Origin: Candidatus Magasanikbacteria bacterium RIFOXYC2_FULL_40_16
GTDB taxonomy: Bacteria; Patescibacteriota; Patescibacteriia; Magasanikbacterales; UBA922
Reading direction: 5' to 3'
Assembly: GCA_001783185.1 (NCBI GenBank)
Contig: MFQY01000047.1
Coordinates: 1-52,961 of the forward strand
Length of the DNA stretch: 52,961 bases
In this document: in pieces, positions 281 through 50,622 of the stretch
How positions within the stretch are numbered: the stretch's first letter is position 1
Layout: the number at the start of each line of letters is the position of its first letter
Position numbers and translations under genes: made by a program
The notes under the pieces: model-generated
Databases searched by the model: none
What the model was told of the DNA's origin: nothing
The model's input: only the letters and a program-made list of their open reading frames with translations

Positions 281-317
281 ATCCCTCCGATATTGTGTTG
301 GAGGGATTTTATTTTTT
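281..317. terminator. Bidirectional intrinsic terminator
   Basis: ATCCCTCC-N11-GGAGGGAT stem flanked by an A-run upstream and a T-run downstream. It lies between convergent ORFs 148..264 (+) and 317..1384 (-). Confidence 0.6.
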
Positions 318-1384
318 TAATTATTCTGTAGTTCGTCTTGATAGTAGTGAGCATATATGGACATCATCGCCATAAACAGAGAAGCGACAATCGGTCCAAT
401 GATAAATCCGGAGATGCCAAATAACACAATTCCGCCAAGGGTTGAGAATAGCACAATCAGCGGGTGTAATTCCGTTCCCTTTCCGACCAATACCGGACGA
501 AGCAAATTATCTATGGTGCTTATCAAGAATGTGCCAACAATAAGTATGACTATTCCTTGCCAAACATTGCCGGTCGCAAGCATTATCATCGCTGTCGGAA
601 ACCAGATTACAAATGAGCCGAGCGCCGGAATCAATGATAGTGTTACCATAATTACTCCCCAAACAAACGCGCCTTTAACACCGGTCGCCCAAAACAATAA
701 ACCGCCCATTGTTCCTTGCAAACCTCCAATAATCAAGGTTGTTTTTAAAGTCGCGATAGCGGTGTTTCTAAATTTTTCATAGAACATCAATTCATATCTG
801 TCTCCAATAGGTGAAATAAAGGAAAAATATTTTGCTATTTTTTTGCCGTCTTTGAAAAAGAAATAAAGCGTGTAAAGCATTATGAAAAGCATGAAGACAA
901 ATTTAACCGAATTTTGAGTGATGTTTTTAATATTTTCAAACACAAACAGACTGATTGTTTTGGCGGCGCTACTGGCGTATTGCGTCCATTGCGCGCTGAC
1001 ATCCTGGATATACGGAGCCAGAGGACTGTTTTCCAGCCAGCTGGTAATTCCTTTGACATTGGTGATGATTGAATCGCCTTGTGAGAAGGAAACATATAAT
1101 TGAACCGATTGCTGAACCAAGAGAACTGATAATAAAAACAATGGCAAGAAAATTATTACAATCACTAATAAAACGCTAATGAGAGAGCTGACTGCCGGAA
1201 TATCAATATATCTATTGATAAATTTGTTAATCGGTTGTAAAAGTATGGCCACCACCGCCGCCCAAAATATGGCGTAAATGAATGGTCTGATTAAATATAG
1301 TAAAACTATAAATAGAATTAGTATAGAGCTGAAAAAAATGACAGTGCGCATTTTTTCAAAACTTAGTTGGTTTTTTGCGTTCAT
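317..1384 (-). CDS. AI-2E family (PerM/UPF0118) membrane transporter
   Basis: 355-aa ORF with multiple TM stretches. The overall pattern, including LRPVLVGKGTELHPLIVLFSTLGG, is typical of AI-2E permeases. Confidence 0.85.
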   Translation of the reverse strand: MNAKNQLSFEKMRTVIFFSSILILFIVLLYLIRPFIYAIFWAAVVAILLQPINKFINRYIDIPAVSSLISVLLVIVIIFLPLFLLSVLLVQQSVQLYVSFSQGDSIITNVKGITSWLENSPLAPYIQDVSAQWTQYASSAAKTISLFVFENIKNITQNSVKFVFMLFIMLYTLYFFFKDGKKIAKYFSFISPIGDRYELMFYEKFRNTAIATLKTTLIIGGLQGTMGGLLFWATGVKGAFVWGVIMVTLSLIPALGSFVIWFPTAMIMLATGNVWQGIVILIVGTFLISTIDNLLRPVLVGKGTELHPLIVLFSTLGGIVLFGISGFIIGPIVASLFMAMMSIYAHYYQDELQNN

Positions 1385-1528: not shown

Positions 1529-1849
1529 CTAGGCGGCTTCTTCTTCCGCTTTTTTACGTAATTCTTCTATTTTTGCGTCTTCTCTTTGAGCCTCGTCTGC
1601 TTGGCGATCAAATTCCAATGATGATACGCCGGATTCAATGTCTTCATCAGTGAGGTCTTTTAATGTCTCTCCTGATATCATTTCATTATCACCCTTGTCT
1701 GCGCCGTGTGATTCCCCAGCTATTCCTGCGTCTTCTCGTTCAGCGTCTGCTTTTTGGCGATCAAATTCCAATGATGATACGCCGGATTCAATATCCTCAT
1801 TAGTGAGGTCTTTTAATGTCTCTCCTGACATCATTTCTCTTTCTCCCAT
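1529..1849 (-). CDS. Acidic protein made of two near-identical halves, hypothetical
   Basis: 106-aa ORF in which SGETLKDLT[N/D]EDIESGVSSLEFDRQ occurs twice. The underlying about 82-nt DNA segments (1603-1684 and 1756-1837) are nearly identical and offset by 153 nt. Confidence 0.6.
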   Translation of the reverse strand: MGEREMMSGETLKDLTNEDIESGVSSLEFDRQKADAEREDAGIAGESHGADKGDNEMISGETLKDLTDEDIESGVSSLEFDRQADEAQREDAKIEELRKKAEEEAA

Positions 1850-35800: not shown

Positions 35801-36741
35801 GTTTACCTCGTGTTGAAGAATTGTTTGAAGCGCGCGCTCCAAAAAGAAAAGCGGTTTTAGCTGAACATAATGGCACGATTCAAATAGAAAACGCCGATGG
35901 CAAAGTTATTACCAGCCCGACAGGAAGAAAGATTTTTGAAGGTAGACGCGGACAGAAAATCATTAAACTTACTTATGACGGCAGTGATGAAATGGCGGTA
36001 AAATTTTTGAAGTCAGATGATTTGCAGGTTGCTGATGGGCAAGAAGTAAAAGAAGGCACAGTTTTGTTTGTTAGAGGCAGTTCGGGCGAGGAAGTGAAAG
36101 CTAAACACAACGGTATAGTCTTGATTGATAAAAATAAAGTGTTGCTTACTTTTGAAGGCAGTCATGTGAAAGAATATATCATCCCGATGGGATATAAGTT
36201 GTGGGTGAAAGACGGCGATGAAGTGAAGAAGGGCGATCAGTTGACTGAAGGCAGTGTTGATTTGCACGAATTGCATGAATTGAAAGGACGCGATGCGGTG
36301 CAAAGATATATTTTGACCGAGATTCAGGAAATTTACGCTTCGCAAGGCCAGAGGTTGAATGACAAACACGTGGAAATTATTATCAAACAAATGTTTAGTC
36401 GTGTTTACATTGAAGATCCGGGAGAAACTGATTTATTGCCGGGCGAAACAGTGGAAAAAGCGCAATGGCTGATTGCTAATCATCAATATAGAAAAGATTC
36501 AATCGCAAGATCAAAAGCGCGCGAATTATTCCTCGGCATCAGCAAGGTTTCATTATCAACACAAAGCTTTTTGTCAGCGGCTTCTTTCCAGGAGACTGCT
36601 CGTGTATTGATTAACGCCGCCATCAACGGAAAGATAGACCATTTGGAAGGCTTGAAAGAAAATGTTATCATCGGTCGTTTGATTCCGGTTGGAACCGGTT
36701 TTGGCGACAAAGAATTGAAAATAGATGAAGAAAGCAAATAG
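32845..36741 (+). CDS. rpoC: DNA-directed RNA polymerase subunit beta'
   Basis: 1298 aa with a zinc motif (CFCGKYKKIRYKGIICDKCGVEV), catalytic NADFDGDQMAVH and trigger-loop region. Confidence 0.97.
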   Translation: MSHESPHLIDFDALALQVASPEVIRGWSKGLVSKPETINYRTQKPEKGGLFAEEIFGPTKDWECFCGKYKKIRYKGIICDKCGVEVTHSLVRRERMGHIDLSTAVSHIWFLRSIPSKIGLVLDVPMHSLEKVIYFASFIITKVDENLRTETHEALKEEFKSKRKQIEKETKRKLETVGGKEKEMKSIVKEGDEKISNLEEEFKRVESDLKEMKPLTILSENQYQELALRFGHLFEAGIGAEAIKSLLEKINLEKTIEALTEEIKNSKGAKCERLIRRAKLLKSFYKNNIKPEWMILDVIPVIPPDLRPMVALDGGRFATSDLNDLYRRVINRNNRLKRLLDLNAPEVICRNEKRMLQEAVDALIDNNARASKTVTASTGQKRQLRSLADILKGKQGRFRQNLLGKRVDYSGRSVIVVGPKLNIDECGLPKRMALELFKPFVMSEIIKREYAYNVRSASRFIETNAPEVWDILEEVTKKTRVLLNRAPTLHRLGIQSFRPLLVEGKAIRLHPLVCPAFNADFDGDQMAVHVPLTEEARWEAENLMASEKNILKPATGSPVTTPQQDIALGCYYLTKYREDDTKEVKKFFSDIREATFAYKSRLITLKERIKVRFDDLSKFPEGTGPMIETSIGRIFFNEILPDKLPYYNETVTKKHLGNIIQFLLELYGQEKTAYVLDDMKSLGFKYVTTSGYSLGMEDFGSIPEKAAILKDGDEQILMVEQQYQEGLLTDSERHSKVMEIWTGVKDKVVSHNKEGLDKDGSVFAMIDSGARGSWGQLGQVIGMKGLVASPSGDIIELPVKGNFKEGFDVLEFFISSHGTRKGLSDTALRTANAGYLTRRLVDVAQDVVVLEDDCGDVDGEIFTKEQSEQMGQKLSQRVIGRFVLAPVKDGKRTIVKEGEVVTEEAARQIDQAGIEQIHVRSVLQCKLPKGVCVKCYGFDLSNNKVVKKGTAVGIIAAQSIGEPGTQLTMRTFHLGGVAGGGDITQGLPRVEELFEARAPKRKAVLAEHNGTIQIENADGKVITSPTGRKIFEGRRGQKIIKLTYDGSDEMAVKFLKSDDLQVADGQEVKEGTVLFVRGSSGEEVKAKHNGIVLIDKNKVLLTFEGSHVKEYIIPMGYKLWVKDGDEVKKGDQLTEGSVDLHELHELKGRDAVQRYILTEIQEIYASQGQRLNDKHVEIIIKQMFSRVYIEDPGETDLLPGETVEKAQWLIANHQYRKDSIARSKARELFLGISKVSLSTQSFLSAASFQETARVLINAAINGKIDHLEGLKENVIIGRLIPVGTGFGDKELKIDEESK

Positions 36742-36742
36742 G

Positions 36743-36777
36743 CCGTAACTCGTAAACCGTAATCCGTAACTCGTAAA
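36743..36777. repeat. Family-D short word repeat (TAACTCGT / AAACCGT / AATCCGT)
   Basis: CCGTAACTCGTAAACCGTAATCCGTAACTCGTAAAG lies directly after the rpoC stop. The same words recur at 22667-22680 and 40544-40664. Confidence 0.6.
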
Positions 36778-36789
36778 GTGAAAGAATAA

Positions 36790-36822
36790 AAAATTCCCCT
36801 GATTATTTCAGGGGAATTTTTT
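36790..36822 (+). terminator. Intrinsic terminator after rpoC
   Basis: AAAATTCCCCTGA-TTATTT-CAGGGGAATTTT plus a T-run. Confidence 0.65.
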
Positions 36823-36881
36823 GTGGACTTTTTTTAAAAACAAAATTTGGCTGATTTTAGCCATAAATTGGCTTTTTGCTA

Positions 36882-36910
36882 TTGACAAATTCAGAATTTT
36901 ATGTTATAGT
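36882..36910 (+). promoter_or_regulatory. Sigma70-like promoter (extended -10) of the DGR target gene
   Basis: TTGACA, 17-nt spacer, TGTTATAGT, about 165 nt upstream of the ATG at 37075. Confidence 0.5.
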
Positions 36911-37074
36911 AAGCTATTCTTTTAAAGCGTGGAAGGTTTGTAAAATCATATTGGTTGGAGTATTTATGTCGCTTAAATTAGGACATATAAATACTCTCCT
37001 CAATTTTGAGAGAGTCCCGGGCCTCGGGCAGGGGCAAAATACTTTTTGGGCTTTCAGCCCAATAGGAGACAGAG

Positions 37075-37665
37075 ATGGCAAAATATGATGGCTGGACATA
37101 TGGTGAGACCGAGGCGCTTCTCAACATCATCGGAGGCGCGGATGTCGCGCGCAAGGTGCTCCGAGGCGAGAGCAAACTGACTGTTGTGGAGATCGTTCCA
37201 CAACCCCTCCTGACTTTGGCTGGAACCGTCAAGGTTCAACCGGTGAATAAGCTCGGGGTGAACGAGTTTTTCAACGAGAATAACTCGTCGGTGAGAATCT
37301 CCTATGTCGGAGACAACTTCAAGGAGTGGTTCTACGGAAAGGAAGAGGAACAACCGAACGCGAACGAAACCGTCTTGCGTTATCACACGCTCAATCGGCG
37401 TTCGGTGGACGGTCCCATCATCAAGGAACTGGGTGGCGAGGACAAGGTCAAGGTTACTCTCTCCCATGTTGCTGCCCTTATGTTGGAACAGTCCAATGGC
37501 GAGCGGGGTGCGCTCCTGACCAATAGCTACGCGGACATCTTCTATGTTCACGACGTCGCGGTGAACGTGTACTGGCTCGGCTTCGGCTGGTACGTGGTCG
37601 CCTACTCGGTCGGGGATCCGGGTGGGTGGAACGCTGGCGGCCGGGTGTTCTCCTGCGATTCATAA
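37075..37665 (+). CDS. DGR variable (target) protein, C-terminal C-type-lectin-like variable region
   Basis: 196 aa with no signal peptide. The last about 36 codons (..AVNVYWLGFGWYVVAYSVGDPGGWNAGGRVFSCDS) contain the VR. The gene is G+C-rich relative to its flanks. Confidence 0.85.
   Translation: MAKYDGWTYGETEALLNIIGGADVARKVLRGESKLTVVEIVPQPLLTLAGTVKVQPVNKLGVNEFFNENNSSVRISYVGDNFKEWFYGKEEEQPNANETVLRYHTLNRRSVDGPIIKELGGEDKVKVTLSHVAALMLEQSNGERGALLTNSYADIFYVHDVAVNVYWLGFGWYVVAYSVGDPGGWNAGGRVFSCDS
37557..37656 (+). repeat. DGR variable repeat (VR)
   Basis: Gap-free 100-nt match to 38024-38123 with 17 mismatches, all at TR adenines. Coordinates anchored on ORF-track codon arithmetic. Confidence 0.88.
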
Positions 37666-37715
37666 CTTAGGTTCTTGGGCATTTTGCCCTTGACCCTTTG
37701 GCTCTTTGTTACTTT

Positions 37716-37761
37716 GGCCCCCAGAATTTTTTTTCGGAAAAATCTGGGGGCCTGTTTTTTT
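37716..37761 (+). terminator. Intrinsic terminator after the target gene
   Basis: GGCCCCCAGAATTTTTT..AAAAATCTGGGGGCC followed by TGTTTTTTT. Confidence 0.6.
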
Positions 37762-38023
37762 GTGAAAAAATTTATGTTATACTGTTTCGGTAGCCACACA
37801 TTGCTCGGCGGCCACGGCTTCCGTGAGATGGCTTCAGAAAATTTTTTTCGAGAGTCGCGTTGGGTATGCCTCGCGCGAGTGTGTAAAATTTTTTTTTTCA
37901 AAAACAAGAATCGGCGCGAAAAATTAGGGGACTTTTTATGTCCCGAATGATATTCAATCCGAGGAGAATTCCAAGGATAGTGTTTAAAGATGATTTTTCG
38001 CGCGAGAACATTCTCGTGTTGCG

Positions 38024-38123
38024 CGCGGTGAACGTGAACTGGAACGGCAACGGCTGGAACGTGAACGCCAACTCGGTCGAGAATCCGAATGAGTGGAACG
38101 CTGACAACCGGGTGTTCTCCTGC
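38024..38123 (+). repeat. DGR template repeat (TR), non-coding
   Basis: In the VR frame it reads AVNVNWNGNGWNVNANSVENPNEWNADNRVFSC (AAC/AAT-rich) and has 25 adenines. A possible extended -10 promoter (TGTTATACT, about 37775-37783) lies upstream. Confidence 0.88.
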
Positions 38124-38141
38124 CACTGTTGTTTTCTCCCG

Positions 38142-38517
38142 TTATTTAGCGGGAGTTTTGCTCAAAAGGCCTTTCCTCCACCCGCCCAACATGCGGCCGA
38201 TTTCATCCAGCTTTTGCGATAGAGTTATATATTTATCTTTGGGTATAAGTTTGTTTTCCCATGCTAGTTGAAAAAAGAATTTTAAGATATCCATTCGTGA
38301 GATGGTTTTTCCAAGCAGAATTATTTTTTGTTCAGGAGGCAAATAAGCGGCCGTGAAAGTTAATTCCAGTATATCCAAGAAGGTTTGTTCTATTTTTTGG
38401 CCTAAGCCAAAGCGCTCTGTCTTTGGCAAGTTTTTATGAAGCGCGAGCCAGAATTGGTATACTTCTTTTTCCTTTGTAATTACCGTTGGTAGCTGGGGGG
38501 GGGGTTAATTGATTCAT
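38142..38517 (-). CDS. avd: Avd-like accessory protein (four-helix bundle / 23S rRNA IVS protein family), reading frame broken at a C10 tract
   Basis: Track ORF 38142..38429 (..LPKTERFGLGQKIEQTFLDILEL...KYITLSQKLDEIGRMLGGWRKGLLSKTPAK) matches the family. Conserved N-terminal residues (EKEVYQFWLALHKN) continue upstream in the same frame to a TAA at the C10 run (38495-38504). The only ATG (38515-38517) is in another frame. Confidence 0.7.
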
Positions 38518-38524
38518 AATATAT

Positions 38525-39646
38525 ATGAAGGTTAAATTGTTTGATACTTTTAATGATATTGTTAGTATAAAAAATTTGATGGGCGCTTGGAGGGATCTCT
38601 TGAAAGGGAAACAAAATAAAAAGGACATCCAATTTTTCTCCCTCCATTTAATGGATAATATCTTAGCTCTTCATTATGATTTAGTAAACAGAACTTATCA
38701 ACATGGTGGTTATGCCAGTTTTTATATAAATGACCCAAAACGGAGGCACATCCATAAAGCGGATGTCAGGGATAGATTACTGCATCACGCCGTTTACAGA
38801 ATTTTATATCCGTTTTTTGACAAAACATTTATATCGGATTCGTTTTCGTGTCGAAACGGCAAGGGTACGCATAGGGCGGTTAATCAGTTTAGAAAAATGA
38901 CCTGCCGGGCAAGCAAAAATAACACAGCCACTGGTTGGGTTTTGAAATGCGATATTAAAAAGTTTTTCGCGAGTATTGACCATAAGGTTTTAATAAACAT
39001 ACTTAATGAATATATACAGGATAAAGATATTATGTTGTTGCTTGAGAATATTGTTGAAAGTTATATGACTGTTTGTCATTCTCGCCCTGTATCACCATTC
39101 TGTCATTCCCGCGAAGGCAGGAATCCAGTTCACGGGATAAACTCCGGCGGGAATCCAGATGATTGGCGGCTGGATCCCCGTTTTCACGGGGATGACAGCA
39201 TTGATGTTGGCTTGCCGCTTGGCAATTTAACTTCCCAGCTTTTTGCCAATGTTTATATGAATGTTTTTGACCAATGGGTTAAACACTTCTTAAAAGCAAG
39301 ATATTATATCAGATATGCCGACGATTTTGTTTTTCTTTCGCCCGACAGGCAATGGCTGGAAGATATTATCCCCAAGATACAAAAATTTTTATCGGAAAGA
39401 TTAAAATTGACTTTGCATCCAAATAAATTATTTTTGAAAACAATTTATTCAGGCATGGATTTCCTTGGTTGGATAAATTTTCCCGGCCATAGGATACTGC
39501 GCCGTACAACCAAGCGCCGGATGTTGGCCAAAATCAAAAATAATCCAACGCCCGAGGCATTGCAGTCATATCTTGGTTTATTAAAACATGGCAACACACA
39601 CAAAATAAAACAGGAGCTTTTGGGGCAGTATTGGTTGTGGCAGTGA
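38525..39646 (+). CDS. DGR-type reverse transcriptase
   Basis: 373 aa with RT motifs (LLHHAVYRILYP, KCDIKKFFASIDH, YIRYADDFVFLS) and the DGR-diagnostic GLPLGNLTSQLFANVYMN. Confidence 0.9.
   Translation: MKVKLFDTFNDIVSIKNLMGAWRDLLKGKQNKKDIQFFSLHLMDNILALHYDLVNRTYQHGGYASFYINDPKRRHIHKADVRDRLLHHAVYRILYPFFDKTFISDSFSCRNGKGTHRAVNQFRKMTCRASKNNTATGWVLKCDIKKFFASIDHKVLINILNEYIQDKDIMLLLENIVESYMTVCHSRPVSPFCHSREGRNPVHGINSGGNPDDWRLDPRFHGDDSIDVGLPLGNLTSQLFANVYMNVFDQWVKHFLKARYYIRYADDFVFLSPDRQWLEDIIPKIQKFLSERLKLTLHPNKLFLKTIYSGMDFLGWINFPGHRILRRTTKRRMLAKIKNNPTPEALQSYLGLLKHGNTHKIKQELLGQYWLWQ
39068..39202 (+). repeat. Family-C hairpin repeats inserted in frame in the RT gene (about 45 codons)
   Basis: TGTCATTCCCGCGAAGGCAGGAATCCAG and GGATCCCCGTTTTCACGGGGATGACA match intergenic copies at 50540, 51518 and 22181. 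They encode TVCHSRPVSPFCHSREGRNPVHGINSGGNPDDWRLDPRFHGDDSI between RT motif 2 and the LGNLTSQ motif. Confidence 0.65.
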
Positions 39647-39805
39647 GTTAATATTGTGGTTTTAATAGTGATGAAGCTATTTGATCTTTAACTGTTTTTA
39701 TGTTTAAATTATGGCATAAACATGCCAATCAATTATTAAACACATTCGCATTATTCGCGTAATTAGCATATAATTCGCGTATTCGTGTTATATTTAAATA
39801 TTTTT

Positions 39806-40537
39806 ATGTCCGGTCATTCAAAATGGGCTAATATACAGCAAAAAAAGGGGAAAATGGACAGCGCGCGCAGCGGTTTGTTCACTAAATTAAGCAAAGGAAT
39901 AACCATTGCCGCCCGAGGCGGAGGCGATCCGGAAATGAATTTTTCTTTGCGTTTAGCGATAGAAAAAGCCAAAGGCGCCAATATGCCTAAAGATAATATT
40001 GAACGCGCCGTTAAGCGCGGAACCGGCGAGTCGGGCGAAGGCGCGGTTTTGGAAGAAATATTGTATGAGGGTTTCGGGCCGGGCGGAACGGCTTTTTTAA
40101 TTGAAACGGTTACAGATAATAAGAACAGAACAGCGTCTGAAATCAAACATGCTTTTCTTCAGTTTGGCGGTTCCATGGGCGGGCCGGGAAGCGTGAAGTG
40201 GCAATTTAAACGGATGGGTGTTATCCGTTTAAATAAAGAACAATTAGCAATTAACAATGAACAATCGGCTAATTTTGAATTGGAATTGATTGAGGCCGGA
40301 GCGGATGATATTGTTGATAATGAGTACGGTATGGAAATTCATTGTCCGATTGAAAAATTGCAAGCGGTTTTGGGAGCGGTGAATAAGCGCGAATTGACGC
40401 CGGAGAGTTCGGGATTGGAATGGGTGGCGAAAGAAAATATTTCTTTGAAAGAAGGCGAATCAGCTACTGTGAATAAATTATACGAAATACTGGATGAGTT
40501 GGATGATGTGGAAGCGGTCTACACTAATGAGGCGTAA
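39806..40537 (+). CDS. YebC/PmpR-family transcriptional regulator
   Basis: MSGHSKWANIQQKKGK..., conserved throughout. Track ORF 39785 trimmed to this ATG. Confidence 0.9.
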   Translation: MSGHSKWANIQQKKGKMDSARSGLFTKLSKGITIAARGGGDPEMNFSLRLAIEKAKGANMPKDNIERAVKRGTGESGEGAVLEEILYEGFGPGGTAFLIETVTDNKNRTASEIKHAFLQFGGSMGGPGSVKWQFKRMGVIRLNKEQLAINNEQSANFELELIEAGADDIVDNEYGMEIHCPIEKLQAVLGAVNKRELTPESSGLEWVAKENISLKEGESATVNKLYEILDELDDVEAVYTNEA

Positions 40538-50497: not shown

Positions 50498-50622
50498 TGT
50501 CATTGCGAGGAGTCCCAAGACGACGTCGCAATCCCGTCTTGTCATTCCCGTGAAAGCGGGAATCCAGTAATTTAAAATCTAATGCCTAAAACCTAATCCC
50601 TAAATAATCTAAATAAGTCATT
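50498..50622. repeat. Family-B unit followed by the left copy of an about 84-bp direct repeat (family-C hairpin plus CCTAA word tail)
   Basis: TGTCATTGCGAGGAGTCCCAAGACGACGTCGCAATCCC is followed by TTGTCATTCCCGTGAAAGCGGGAATCCAGTAATTTAAAATCTAATGCCTAAAACCTAATCCCTAAATAATCTAAATAAGTCATT (50539-50622). Confidence 0.65.

Follow-up and report, generated by a model that had tools for sequence, protein, structure and literature searches.

A simple repeat separates start codon and Avd domain in a diversity-generating retroelement of Candidatus Magasanikbacteria and its CPR relatives

The DGR cassette and its layout

The diversity-generating retroelement (DGR) described here lies on contig MFQY01000047.1 of Candidatus Magasanikbacteria bacterium RIFOXYC2_FULL_40_16 (GCA_001783185.1), of which positions 1 to 52,961 were analysed (hereafter the window). 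It consists of a target gene with a variable repeat (VR), a template repeat (TR), a gene for the accessory protein Avd on the minus strand, and a reverse transcriptase (RT) gene, and a homopolymer tract separates the Avd domain from the start codons available to it. The regulation of DGRs is largely obscure, above all in the uncultured bacteria of the candidate phyla radiation (CPR), where these elements are most abundant.

The target gene (37075..37665, plus strand) encodes a protein of 196 aa without a family match in Pfam or NCBIfam. The VR (37557..37656, plus strand) lies inside its last 110 nt and aligns to the TR (38024..38123, plus strand) at an offset of 467 nt. Over the 103 columns compared (38024-38126), TR and VR differ at 19 positions, all 19 of them among the 26 adenines of this part of the TR, so that the pair shows the features typical of a DGR, with differences at TR adenines and a VR forming the 3' end of the target open reading frame (ORF). 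The RT (38525..39646, plus strand, 373 aa) matches RVT_1 (E = 3.7e-21) and contains the motifs LPLGNLTSQ and YADD. Both LPLGNLTSQ and RYADDFVF are invariant in the RT alignment (A2), identifying the enzyme as a DGR-type RT, and a homology search with the window RT returned thousands of DGR-type relatives from CPR bacteria. Between TR and RT, the minus strand holds the reading frame of the Avd body (38142..38504, stop codon at 38142-38144), a four-helix domain beginning at a C-run. This frame matches Pfam bAvd with 53.5 bits (cut-off 40) and NCBIfam DivGenRetAVD with E = 1.4e-20 and 73.5 bits, just below the cut-off of 80, and a PDB sequence search with Avd gave no match. The avd stop codon lies 18 nt past the TR end at 38123, and the CAT of a minus-strand ATG (38515-38517) lies 7 nt from the RT ATG (38525). 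A profile search found one avd and one RT in the whole window. The original prediction had placed an antisense avd between a TR and an RT of the plus strand, with its stop codon 18 nt after the TR, and both points stand. The positions it gave for the two divergent ATGs are also correct, but the minus-strand ATG at 38517 is out of frame with the Avd body.

This layout had been thought unusual, which it is not. The window RT served to gather one set of 80 loci in species-representative genomes and a second set of 80 in metagenomes. CPR/Patescibacteria account for almost all of them, and a profile built from Avd sequences detected avd in 151 of these loci. In 150 of the 151, avd is opposite in strand to the RT gene and directly upstream of it, as in the window. 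Among the 99 loci with a detectable TR/VR pair, 95 show the order VR (plus strand, upstream), TR (plus), avd (minus), and RT (plus), and the gap from TR end to avd stop has a median of 17 nt. The order TR-(avd)-RT was described as Architecture B3 by Wu et al. 2018 (NAR 46:11, PMC5758913) and makes up 90% of the CPR DGR set of that study. The window agrees with this class in how the TR, the reversed avd, and the RT are ordered and oriented, in the target gene and VR upstream, and in the host group, the nearest RTs being named Magasanikbacteria, Falkowbacteria, and Parcubacteria. It does not conform to Architecture B1 (BPP-1 type), since avd follows the TR and is encoded by the other strand. The inverted-avd layout is thus the clade norm and already described, a circumstance that the prediction itself had named as one that would lower the novelty of the layout. 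In contrast, the Architecture B3 literature compared does not mention the avd repeat tract, the frame scatter, or the hairpin after the TR, and a full-text literature search gave nothing linking Avd or DGRs to homopolymers, simple repeats, or phase variation (the study of CPR/DPANN DGRs by Paul et al. 2017, PMC5436926, lay outside both).

A frame-setting repeat in avd

The gene had been delimited as 38142..38517, and in these bounds avd is not an intact ORF in the window allele. The interval measures 376 nt, which is indivisible by three, and the frame from the ATG at 38517 reads MNQLTPPPATNG... and stops after 27 codons. The frame of the Avd body is closed by a TAA (38505-38507) just upstream of its C-run and contains no ATG, GTG, or TTG before a TTG at 38429, about 25 residues within the Avd domain. 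The Pfam bAvd match begins 11 residues past the first codon of the C-run, upstream of this first in-frame start codon, so that the domain is present and an in-frame start codon is absent. Apart from the frame break, the Avd body has no lesion and reaches 155 bits against the Avd profile of the clade. The break coincides with a homopolymer of ten nucleotides (38495..38504; G10 on the plus strand, C10 in avd sense) located 20 nt upstream of the RT ATG, which sets the frame between the body and two leaders. The Avd body shares its frame with the short leader ATGAATCAATTAA (MNQL.., 38505..38517, minus strand) at C9 or C12 only, and with the long alternative leader (MEGEKLDV..., 38505..38647, minus strand, ATG at 38645-38647) at C11 only. 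This long leader is antisense to RT codons 1-41, and the ORF present there in the window has 55 aa (38480..38647). As in phase-variable genes, the 5' coding region thus contains a simple repeat, placed so that changes in its length shift the Avd body relative to the start codon.

Tract length differs between genomes that are otherwise the same. The G10 allele of the window recurs in five informative assemblies of its lineage, a Rifle-type groundwater population. Samples with G10 are JGI 3300025117 and 3300025081, ERZ27254748, and SRR3989311, and samples with G11 are JGI 3300025152 and 3300025095, ERZ27254805, ERZ27254812, ERZ27254852, and SRR3989313. When the 95-aa Avd call was looked up by exact sequence, it proved to belong with a 90% cluster containing a 168-aa fusion form (P0123, MEGEKLDV...ESINPPPQLPTV...). 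The P0123 contigs all carry G11 (8 shown of 10 read), and in L197-L201 the extra G is the sole difference from the window across 1.1-2.5 kb. With G11, the Avd body comes into frame with the ATG at 38647, giving the long leader and a complete ORF. The closest relative with an identical short leader ATGAATCAATTAA (L094) has C9 and an intact Avd of 124 aa. All three phases are therefore found in nature, namely C9 with the short leader, C10 without a start codon (the window), and C11 with the long leader. Differences of one nucleotide occur in five further lineages: C8/C9 in L109/L111, C9/C8 in L130/L145, and C9/C10/C9 in L139/L140/L142, each with 400-nt flanks that are 100% or nearly identical, C10/C9 in L105/L106 with flanks identical or nearly so, and G11 versus G10 at the P0035 locus, where this is the sole difference in 2444 nt. 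Eight lineages show no such difference. A look-up by the RT P0004 retrieves one tract length only, because the P0004 ORF call reads through the G-run. An exact-pattern scan of metagenome_contigs with the tract flanks and a variable gap gave 0 matches in this collection, which is without contigs of the window lineage.

Independent assemblies break exactly at the tract or inside the VR. Contigs L005 and L008 start at the G-run, scaffold L007 has an N gap beside it, and contigs L001-L003 start inside the VR. Sample ERZ27254852 contains a G11 contig (L198) and a second contig starting at the run (L008). These contigs and the breaks at the run hint at within-sample heterogeneity.

The repeat extends far beyond the window lineage. 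After removal of duplicates, and with L085 left out, 124 relatives carry a simple repeat at the same avd site, just before helix 1. In avd sense, these are poly-C in 117 loci (C6-C14, mode C10), (CT)n in four, (CA)n in two, and (GA)n in one. In L085, a G51 run followed by N's adjoins a C17 tract on its upstream side in avd sense, almost certainly an assembly or scaffolding artefact. Runs of at least eight G or C number 133 in the 738,562 nt of the 160 loci, about one per locus; at least one is present in 127 loci and more than one in four, and the per-locus tables place the run at the avd site. An in-frame ATG for the Avd body is found in 28 of the 124 repeat loci and in all seven repeat-less loci (L034, L035, L055, L061, L075, L116, and L121; Fisher p ~6e-5, arithmetic on counts). 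Relative to the nearest open upstream ATG, and with calls that depend on the leader ATG chosen where several exist, leader frames 0, 1, and 2 occur in 29, 39, and 55 loci. The shifts needed to reach the body are accordingly mixed (none, -1, and +1, respectively), which does not fit programmed frameshifting. Among the dinucleotide-repeat loci, a type immune to homopolymer sequencing error, two of seven are in frame. Many out-of-frame loci lack any ATG, GTG, or TTG from the upstream stop to mid-domain, and an internal downstream start of Avd was rejected on this ground. The repeat is thus kept at an orthologous site across relatives, in four types and with on and off phases mixed.

The sequence leading into the repeat is maintained as well. 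A conserved leader peptide, M.QLNFH, was considered as evidence of translation and rejected, being the antisense of the conserved RT N-terminus MKIQLxH; the stop test was for this reason confined to the intergenic part of the leader, from the RT ATG to the repeat (median 6 codons). Over this part, the leader frame is stop-free in 79 of 79 loci, including all 62 out-of-frame loci, whereas the other two frames contain stops in 24/79 and 58/79. Even in loci whose Avd body is out of phase, the ORF that leads into the repeat is therefore maintained without stops. Furthermore, a TR/VR pair is detectable in 66% of the in-frame and 69% of the out-of-frame loci, with equal mismatch numbers and an equal fraction of non-adenine mismatches. 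Since the leader ORF is open and the TR/VR measures are alike in on and off loci, the off state is not decay.

The element itself appears to be at work. Assemblies from this one population, with an identity of at least 99.9% outside the VR, show substitutions within the VR only at TR-adenine positions (10 in L002, 4 in L003, and 2 in L196), the pattern of ongoing A-directed diversification. As judged from these sequences, the DGR is active in this population, and the confinement of VR substitutions to TR adenines rules out a dead relic. Two further contigs differ in another manner over the compared region (37203-37660). The VR of L195 shows insertions plus adenine-site substitutions relative to the window, and L194 has 32 substitutions in the 5' part of the target gene (37215-37413), with the rest of the locus nearly identical. 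These differences suggest either allelic exchange or a second variant of the target gene.

Gene calls at the tract are unstable. Among L001-L008 and L194-L201, avd was called with 95, 124, 163, or 168 aa; in G11 contigs, the RT call is shortened to 331 aa, which avoids an overlap with the long avd call; and the calls often include a spurious ORF of 174 aa on the strand antisense to the TR/VR spacer. Gene callers thus mis-annotate avd at the tract, and surveys may under-count functional Avd. A sub-clade (L169-L178 of the P0004 lineage, P0060, P0068, and P0089 of alignment A2, and L105/L106) has an RT without the usual ATG (MKIQL replaced by SKIQL and similar), its sole ATG lying upstream of the G-run and the RT ORF crossing the repeat as GGG codons. 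Of the two tract lengths in the pair L105 (G10) and L106 (G9), one leaves the frames of RT and avd both open, whereas the other closes both. Inspection of L169-L178 by eye shows what looks like TGA in place of the conserved Trp codon in helix 1 of Avd (..CYLLW..), which could be a nonsense mutation or recoding; on the opposite strand, this site is the ATG of the extended RT ORF, antisense at the annotated RT start (locus position 901).

The template RNA, promoters, and other features

Twelve nucleotides past the TR, a hairpin scan returned a terminator-like hairpin CTCCCGTTATTTAGCGGGAG followed by TTTT (38136..38159, plus strand), with the avd stop codon in its loop. When searched for as a perfect stem of at least 6 bp followed by a T-run within ~60 nt after the TR, such a hairpin was found in 79 of 92 relatives, compared to 55 of 920 random windows of the same loci (6%) and 9 of 92 on the minus strand (10%). 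The element thus has the sequence features of an intrinsic terminator, a GC-rich stem-loop and a subsequent T-run, and is strand-specific and conserved. The stem sequence varies between loci while pairing is kept, although this diversity was counted on hairpins selected for complementarity and is not an independent covariation test. RNAalifold called no structure for 44 MAFFT-aligned hairpins, whose 5' arms were out of register. Folding the TR with the following 150 nt, a check that had been proposed with the original prediction, gave z = -0.87, and folding the putative full TR RNA gave z = -1.94; both were uninformative beyond keeping the hairpin (38136-38155) in the minimum free energy and centroid folds. 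A scan of 36500-40000 against Rfam found no known RNA family over the TR region. It returned a weak, probably chance match to ncr1575, a Bacillus small RNA (36787-36904, minus strand, 34.4 bits versus a gathering threshold of 60, E = 0.015), located between rpoC and the DGR target gene.

We infer from the conserved hairpin that it terminates transcription, and that the TR RNA probably ends at the hairpin and U-run, before avd. An end at this point would remove the antisense conflict with avd and would mean that the RT is expressed separately. A TR-RT co-transcript antisense to avd, as envisaged earlier, is therefore not the likeliest arrangement, and the regulatory peculiarity of the locus, which had been sought in antisense transcription, appears to lie instead in the repeat tract between ATG and Avd body. 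In contrast, the expectation that the avd promoter would lie inside the RT gene agrees with a sigma-70-like match on the minus strand (38701..38673, TTGATA-17-CATAAT, 10 of 12 consensus positions), a candidate for this function. For the RT gene, no convincing promoter emerged, and the window scan found no convincing -35/-10 pair flanking the run. The spacer between VR and TR contains, by eye, a possible extended -10 promoter (TGtTATACT, in 37760-37790) ~240 nt upstream of the TR, which if used would yield a TR RNA of ~370 nt ending at the hairpin. A T10 run (37889-37898) lies in the same spacer. Downstream of the target gene, a long inverted repeat GGCCCCCAGA...TCTGGGGGCC followed by a T-run (37716..37752, plus strand), read from the sequence, is a probable terminator of this gene; it was not returned by the hairpin scan, whose loop limit was 8 nt.

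The prediction that the DGR RNA is organized differently from the Bordetella phage prototype is borne out by the reversed avd and by the hairpin and U-run after the TR. In the BPP-1 DGR (Architecture B1), mtd with its VR, avd, TR, spacer, and brt all lie on one strand, whereas the window avd is on the other. In both systems, information passes from TR to VR in an A-specific manner, Avd is paired with an RT, the VR occupies the 3' end of its target gene, and VR and TR share an identical, GC-rich segment at their 3' ends. Upstream of the TR, the BPP-1 DGR RNA depends on ~300 nt of RNA in avd sense, and downstream it depends on almost the whole of the 144-nt spacer (Sp); Avd binds Sp 4-30, priming occurs from Sp A56, and cDNA synthesis requires Avd (Handa et al. 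2018, PMC6182149). In the window, by contrast, the RNA upstream of the TR is intergenic, the RNA downstream consists of the 20-nt hairpin and U-run followed by antisense avd, and avd is interrupted by the repeat tract.

Two features are peripheral to the cassette's organization. The RT gene contains an in-frame palindromic repeat element between motifs 3 and 4 (39074..39201, plus strand) with 32-nt inverted arms and without counterpart in most A2 relatives. This GC-rich insertion of ~45 aa resembles the in-frame palindromic elements of Rickettsia. A related second copy (50542-50567) is intergenic after a gene for a PNPase-like protein, and several relatives have other insertions at the same RT loop, in some cases with remnants of a similar peptide (..LDPRFHGDD..). 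Apart from the avd tract, the window has G/C runs of at least 8 nt only in the C9 (1482-1490) and G8 (1501-1508) of a homopolymer cluster at 1464-1508 (G7 ... C9-GCTGTACAGC-G8), which forms a strong hairpin between the minus-strand ORFs 317..1384 and 1529..1849. A T-rich stretch follows on the minus strand, and the hairpin is probably a terminator.

A putative gate on mutagenic retrohoming

The anatomy of the window, a B3 DGR with a repeat in avd, is firm. To explain it, we propose that the repeat, being prone to slippage, serves as a stochastic and heritable switch that gates Avd and, through it, mutagenic retrohoming, a reading that we favor with some reservation. The cassette would be an active CPR-type B3 DGR in which a hypermutable repeat separates the avd start codon from the Avd domain, and slipped-strand changes in repeat length would move the Avd body among three phases. 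C9 or C12 would join it to the short leader from the ATG at 38517 and C11 to the long leader from the ATG at 38647, and C10, as in the window, would be off. If Avd is needed together with the RT for cDNA synthesis, as the analogy with the Bordetella phage suggests, the tract would act as a gate on retrohoming, so that most cells would retain their current VR while a minority diversify. The TR would be transcribed as its own short RNA ending at the hairpin and U-run, rather than as an RNA running antisense through avd, and expression of the RT and avd would start from the short divergent stretch in which the repeat lies. The switch would act on DNA, rather than or besides slippage of RNA polymerase or ribosomes. 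The layout of the element is already known; the combination of a repeat-driven contingency switch with a B3 DGR would be new.

The tract resembles the repeats of known contingency genes. Phase-variable poly-G/C genes of Campylobacter, Neisseria, and Helicobacter, for example PMC6321876 and PMC5084427, have an 8-12 nt G/C run or a dinucleotide repeat in the 5' coding region, as found here. Like avd, contingency genes vary in repeat length between otherwise identical genomes, have three phases, and occur as mixed on and off alleles. However, known contingency genes belong mostly to host-associated pathogens and encode surface structures, restriction-modification systems, or regulators of these, whereas the gated gene of the window would be that of an accessory factor of targeted hypermutation in groundwater CPR bacteria. 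Its repeat also differs in being kept at one orthologous site in more than 100 species, and in that switching is here a proposal drawn from assemblies. Other repeats, such as the (TA)n between hifA and hifB of Haemophilus influenzae and the poly-C in Bordetella fim promoters, act on promoter spacing. The avd tract likewise lies between divergent genes and could affect both, but it is located inside the avd frame, 20 nt upstream of the RT ATG, and a promoter role is hypothetical.

Several observations weigh against such a gate. That Avd is needed is an extrapolation from a DGR only distantly related, and the 168-aa long-leader Avd of the G11 alleles is a predicted form. Tract length is unvarying across 4-6 assemblies in three lineages (P0030, P0114, and the G10 set). 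Loci with an in-frame ATG make up less than one third (28/124, binomial p = 0.01) and the frame requiring a +1 shift is over-represented (55/123), neither of which is expected of a purely neutral switch. VR variants also occur among the nominally off G10 assemblies (L002 and L003 versus the window), from which it appears that lineages now at G10 have diversified, so that either the phase went to on and returned, or the frame break does not prevent Avd from being made. Finally, switching rates and within-sample heterogeneity are drawn from consensus assemblies rather than reads, and some metagenome-assembled genomes are of low coverage and some perhaps from long reads, so that a few frame calls may err.

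Some of these points would be accommodated by a throttle at the level of RNA or ribosome, in which RNA polymerase slips on the repeat, or tRNA-Pro does so by +1 or -1 on CCC_CCC_C, so that a little Avd is always made at any genomic length and the repeat keeps Avd and mutagenesis low. This reading is compatible with a DNA-level switch, and we regard it as unlikely as the principal explanation, though as the most serious of the alternatives. It would account for the G10 assemblies whose VRs differ at TR-adenine sites, for off loci without decay of the leader ORF or the TR/VR pair, for the under-representation of in-frame alleles, and for the +1-requiring frame being the commonest; CCC-C is a +1-prone site when tRNA-Pro modification or EF-P is limiting. 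However, the -1 and +1 states (39 and 55 loci) are both common, and no single programmed shift fits them. CT, CA, and GA repeats, which are classic substrates of DNA slippage and poor ribosomal slip sites, replace poly-C in some relatives, polymerase slippage is best documented on A/T rather than C/G runs, and length polymorphism is observed directly in DNA.

The run might instead serve the plus strand, as a cis-element for the RT or a part of the divergent promoter akin to the repeats in promoter spacers, with the effect on the avd frame as a by-product and Avd either dispensable or made from internal starts. Its fairly constant distance from the RT ATG (13-25 nt, mode 19-20), the TTA or TAG that often follows it on the plus strand, the RT frame that, in ~25 of 117 loci, starts at an upstream ATG and crosses the run without a stop, and the joint toggling of RT and avd frames in L105/L106 are in line with such a role. 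A function of the G-run as Shine-Dalgarno sequence of the RT was considered and rejected, the run being too distant. The plus-strand repeats at the site are of G, AG, TG, or TC, which favors repetitiveness over a specific motif, and avd is always in frame where the repeat is absent. The stop-free leader ORF in 79/79 loci shows that translation through the tract is under selection, in many loci an internal start codon is lacking as far as mid-domain, and the window has no convincing -35/-10 pair around the run. We consider a cis-element improbable as the main explanation.

It is far less probable still that the frame breaks are sequencing or assembly errors in an always intact avd. Some platforms are prone to errors in poly-G, coverage is in single digits for several contigs, and the poly-G/N artefact of L085 and the contigs breaking at the run are of this kind, but 96 of the 124 loci would need to be wrong. 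In addition, independent assemblies of this locus agree on G10 in five cases and on G11 in eight, dinucleotide-repeat loci are equally scattered in frame, and the seven repeat-less loci are never out of frame. Least credible of all is a decaying avd pseudogene in a DGR that is dead or uses another factor, the relic that the original prediction had named as its possible undoing: the window allele has no intact ORF and the window no second avd, but the VR has diversified at TR-adenine sites between contemporary assemblies, the Avd body is otherwise undamaged, G11 sister alleles and C9 relatives have complete ORFs, and the same 'lesion' recurs at one site in more than 90 species.

Returning to the heritable switch, its extension to the CPR as a whole, with a hypermutable avd repeat as a second-order on/off switch of targeted hypermutation that in some lineages also lies in the RT frame, seems to us about evenly balanced between true and false. 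Unrestrained mutagenic retrohoming would keep destroying a well-adapted variable protein, and a heritable and reversible Avd gate, if real, would explain how organisms with tiny genomes balance exploration and retention, as lineages could lock in a useful VR and later resume diversification. A mutator would then be under phase-variable control from one conserved site in more than 100 species, and contingency loci and DGRs, two classic devices of evolvability, would be linked in one cassette. The conserved unit of TR, hairpin, and U-run is in turn a minimal candidate for the DGR RNA of the B3 class and could aid the design of compact DGR mutagenesis tools.

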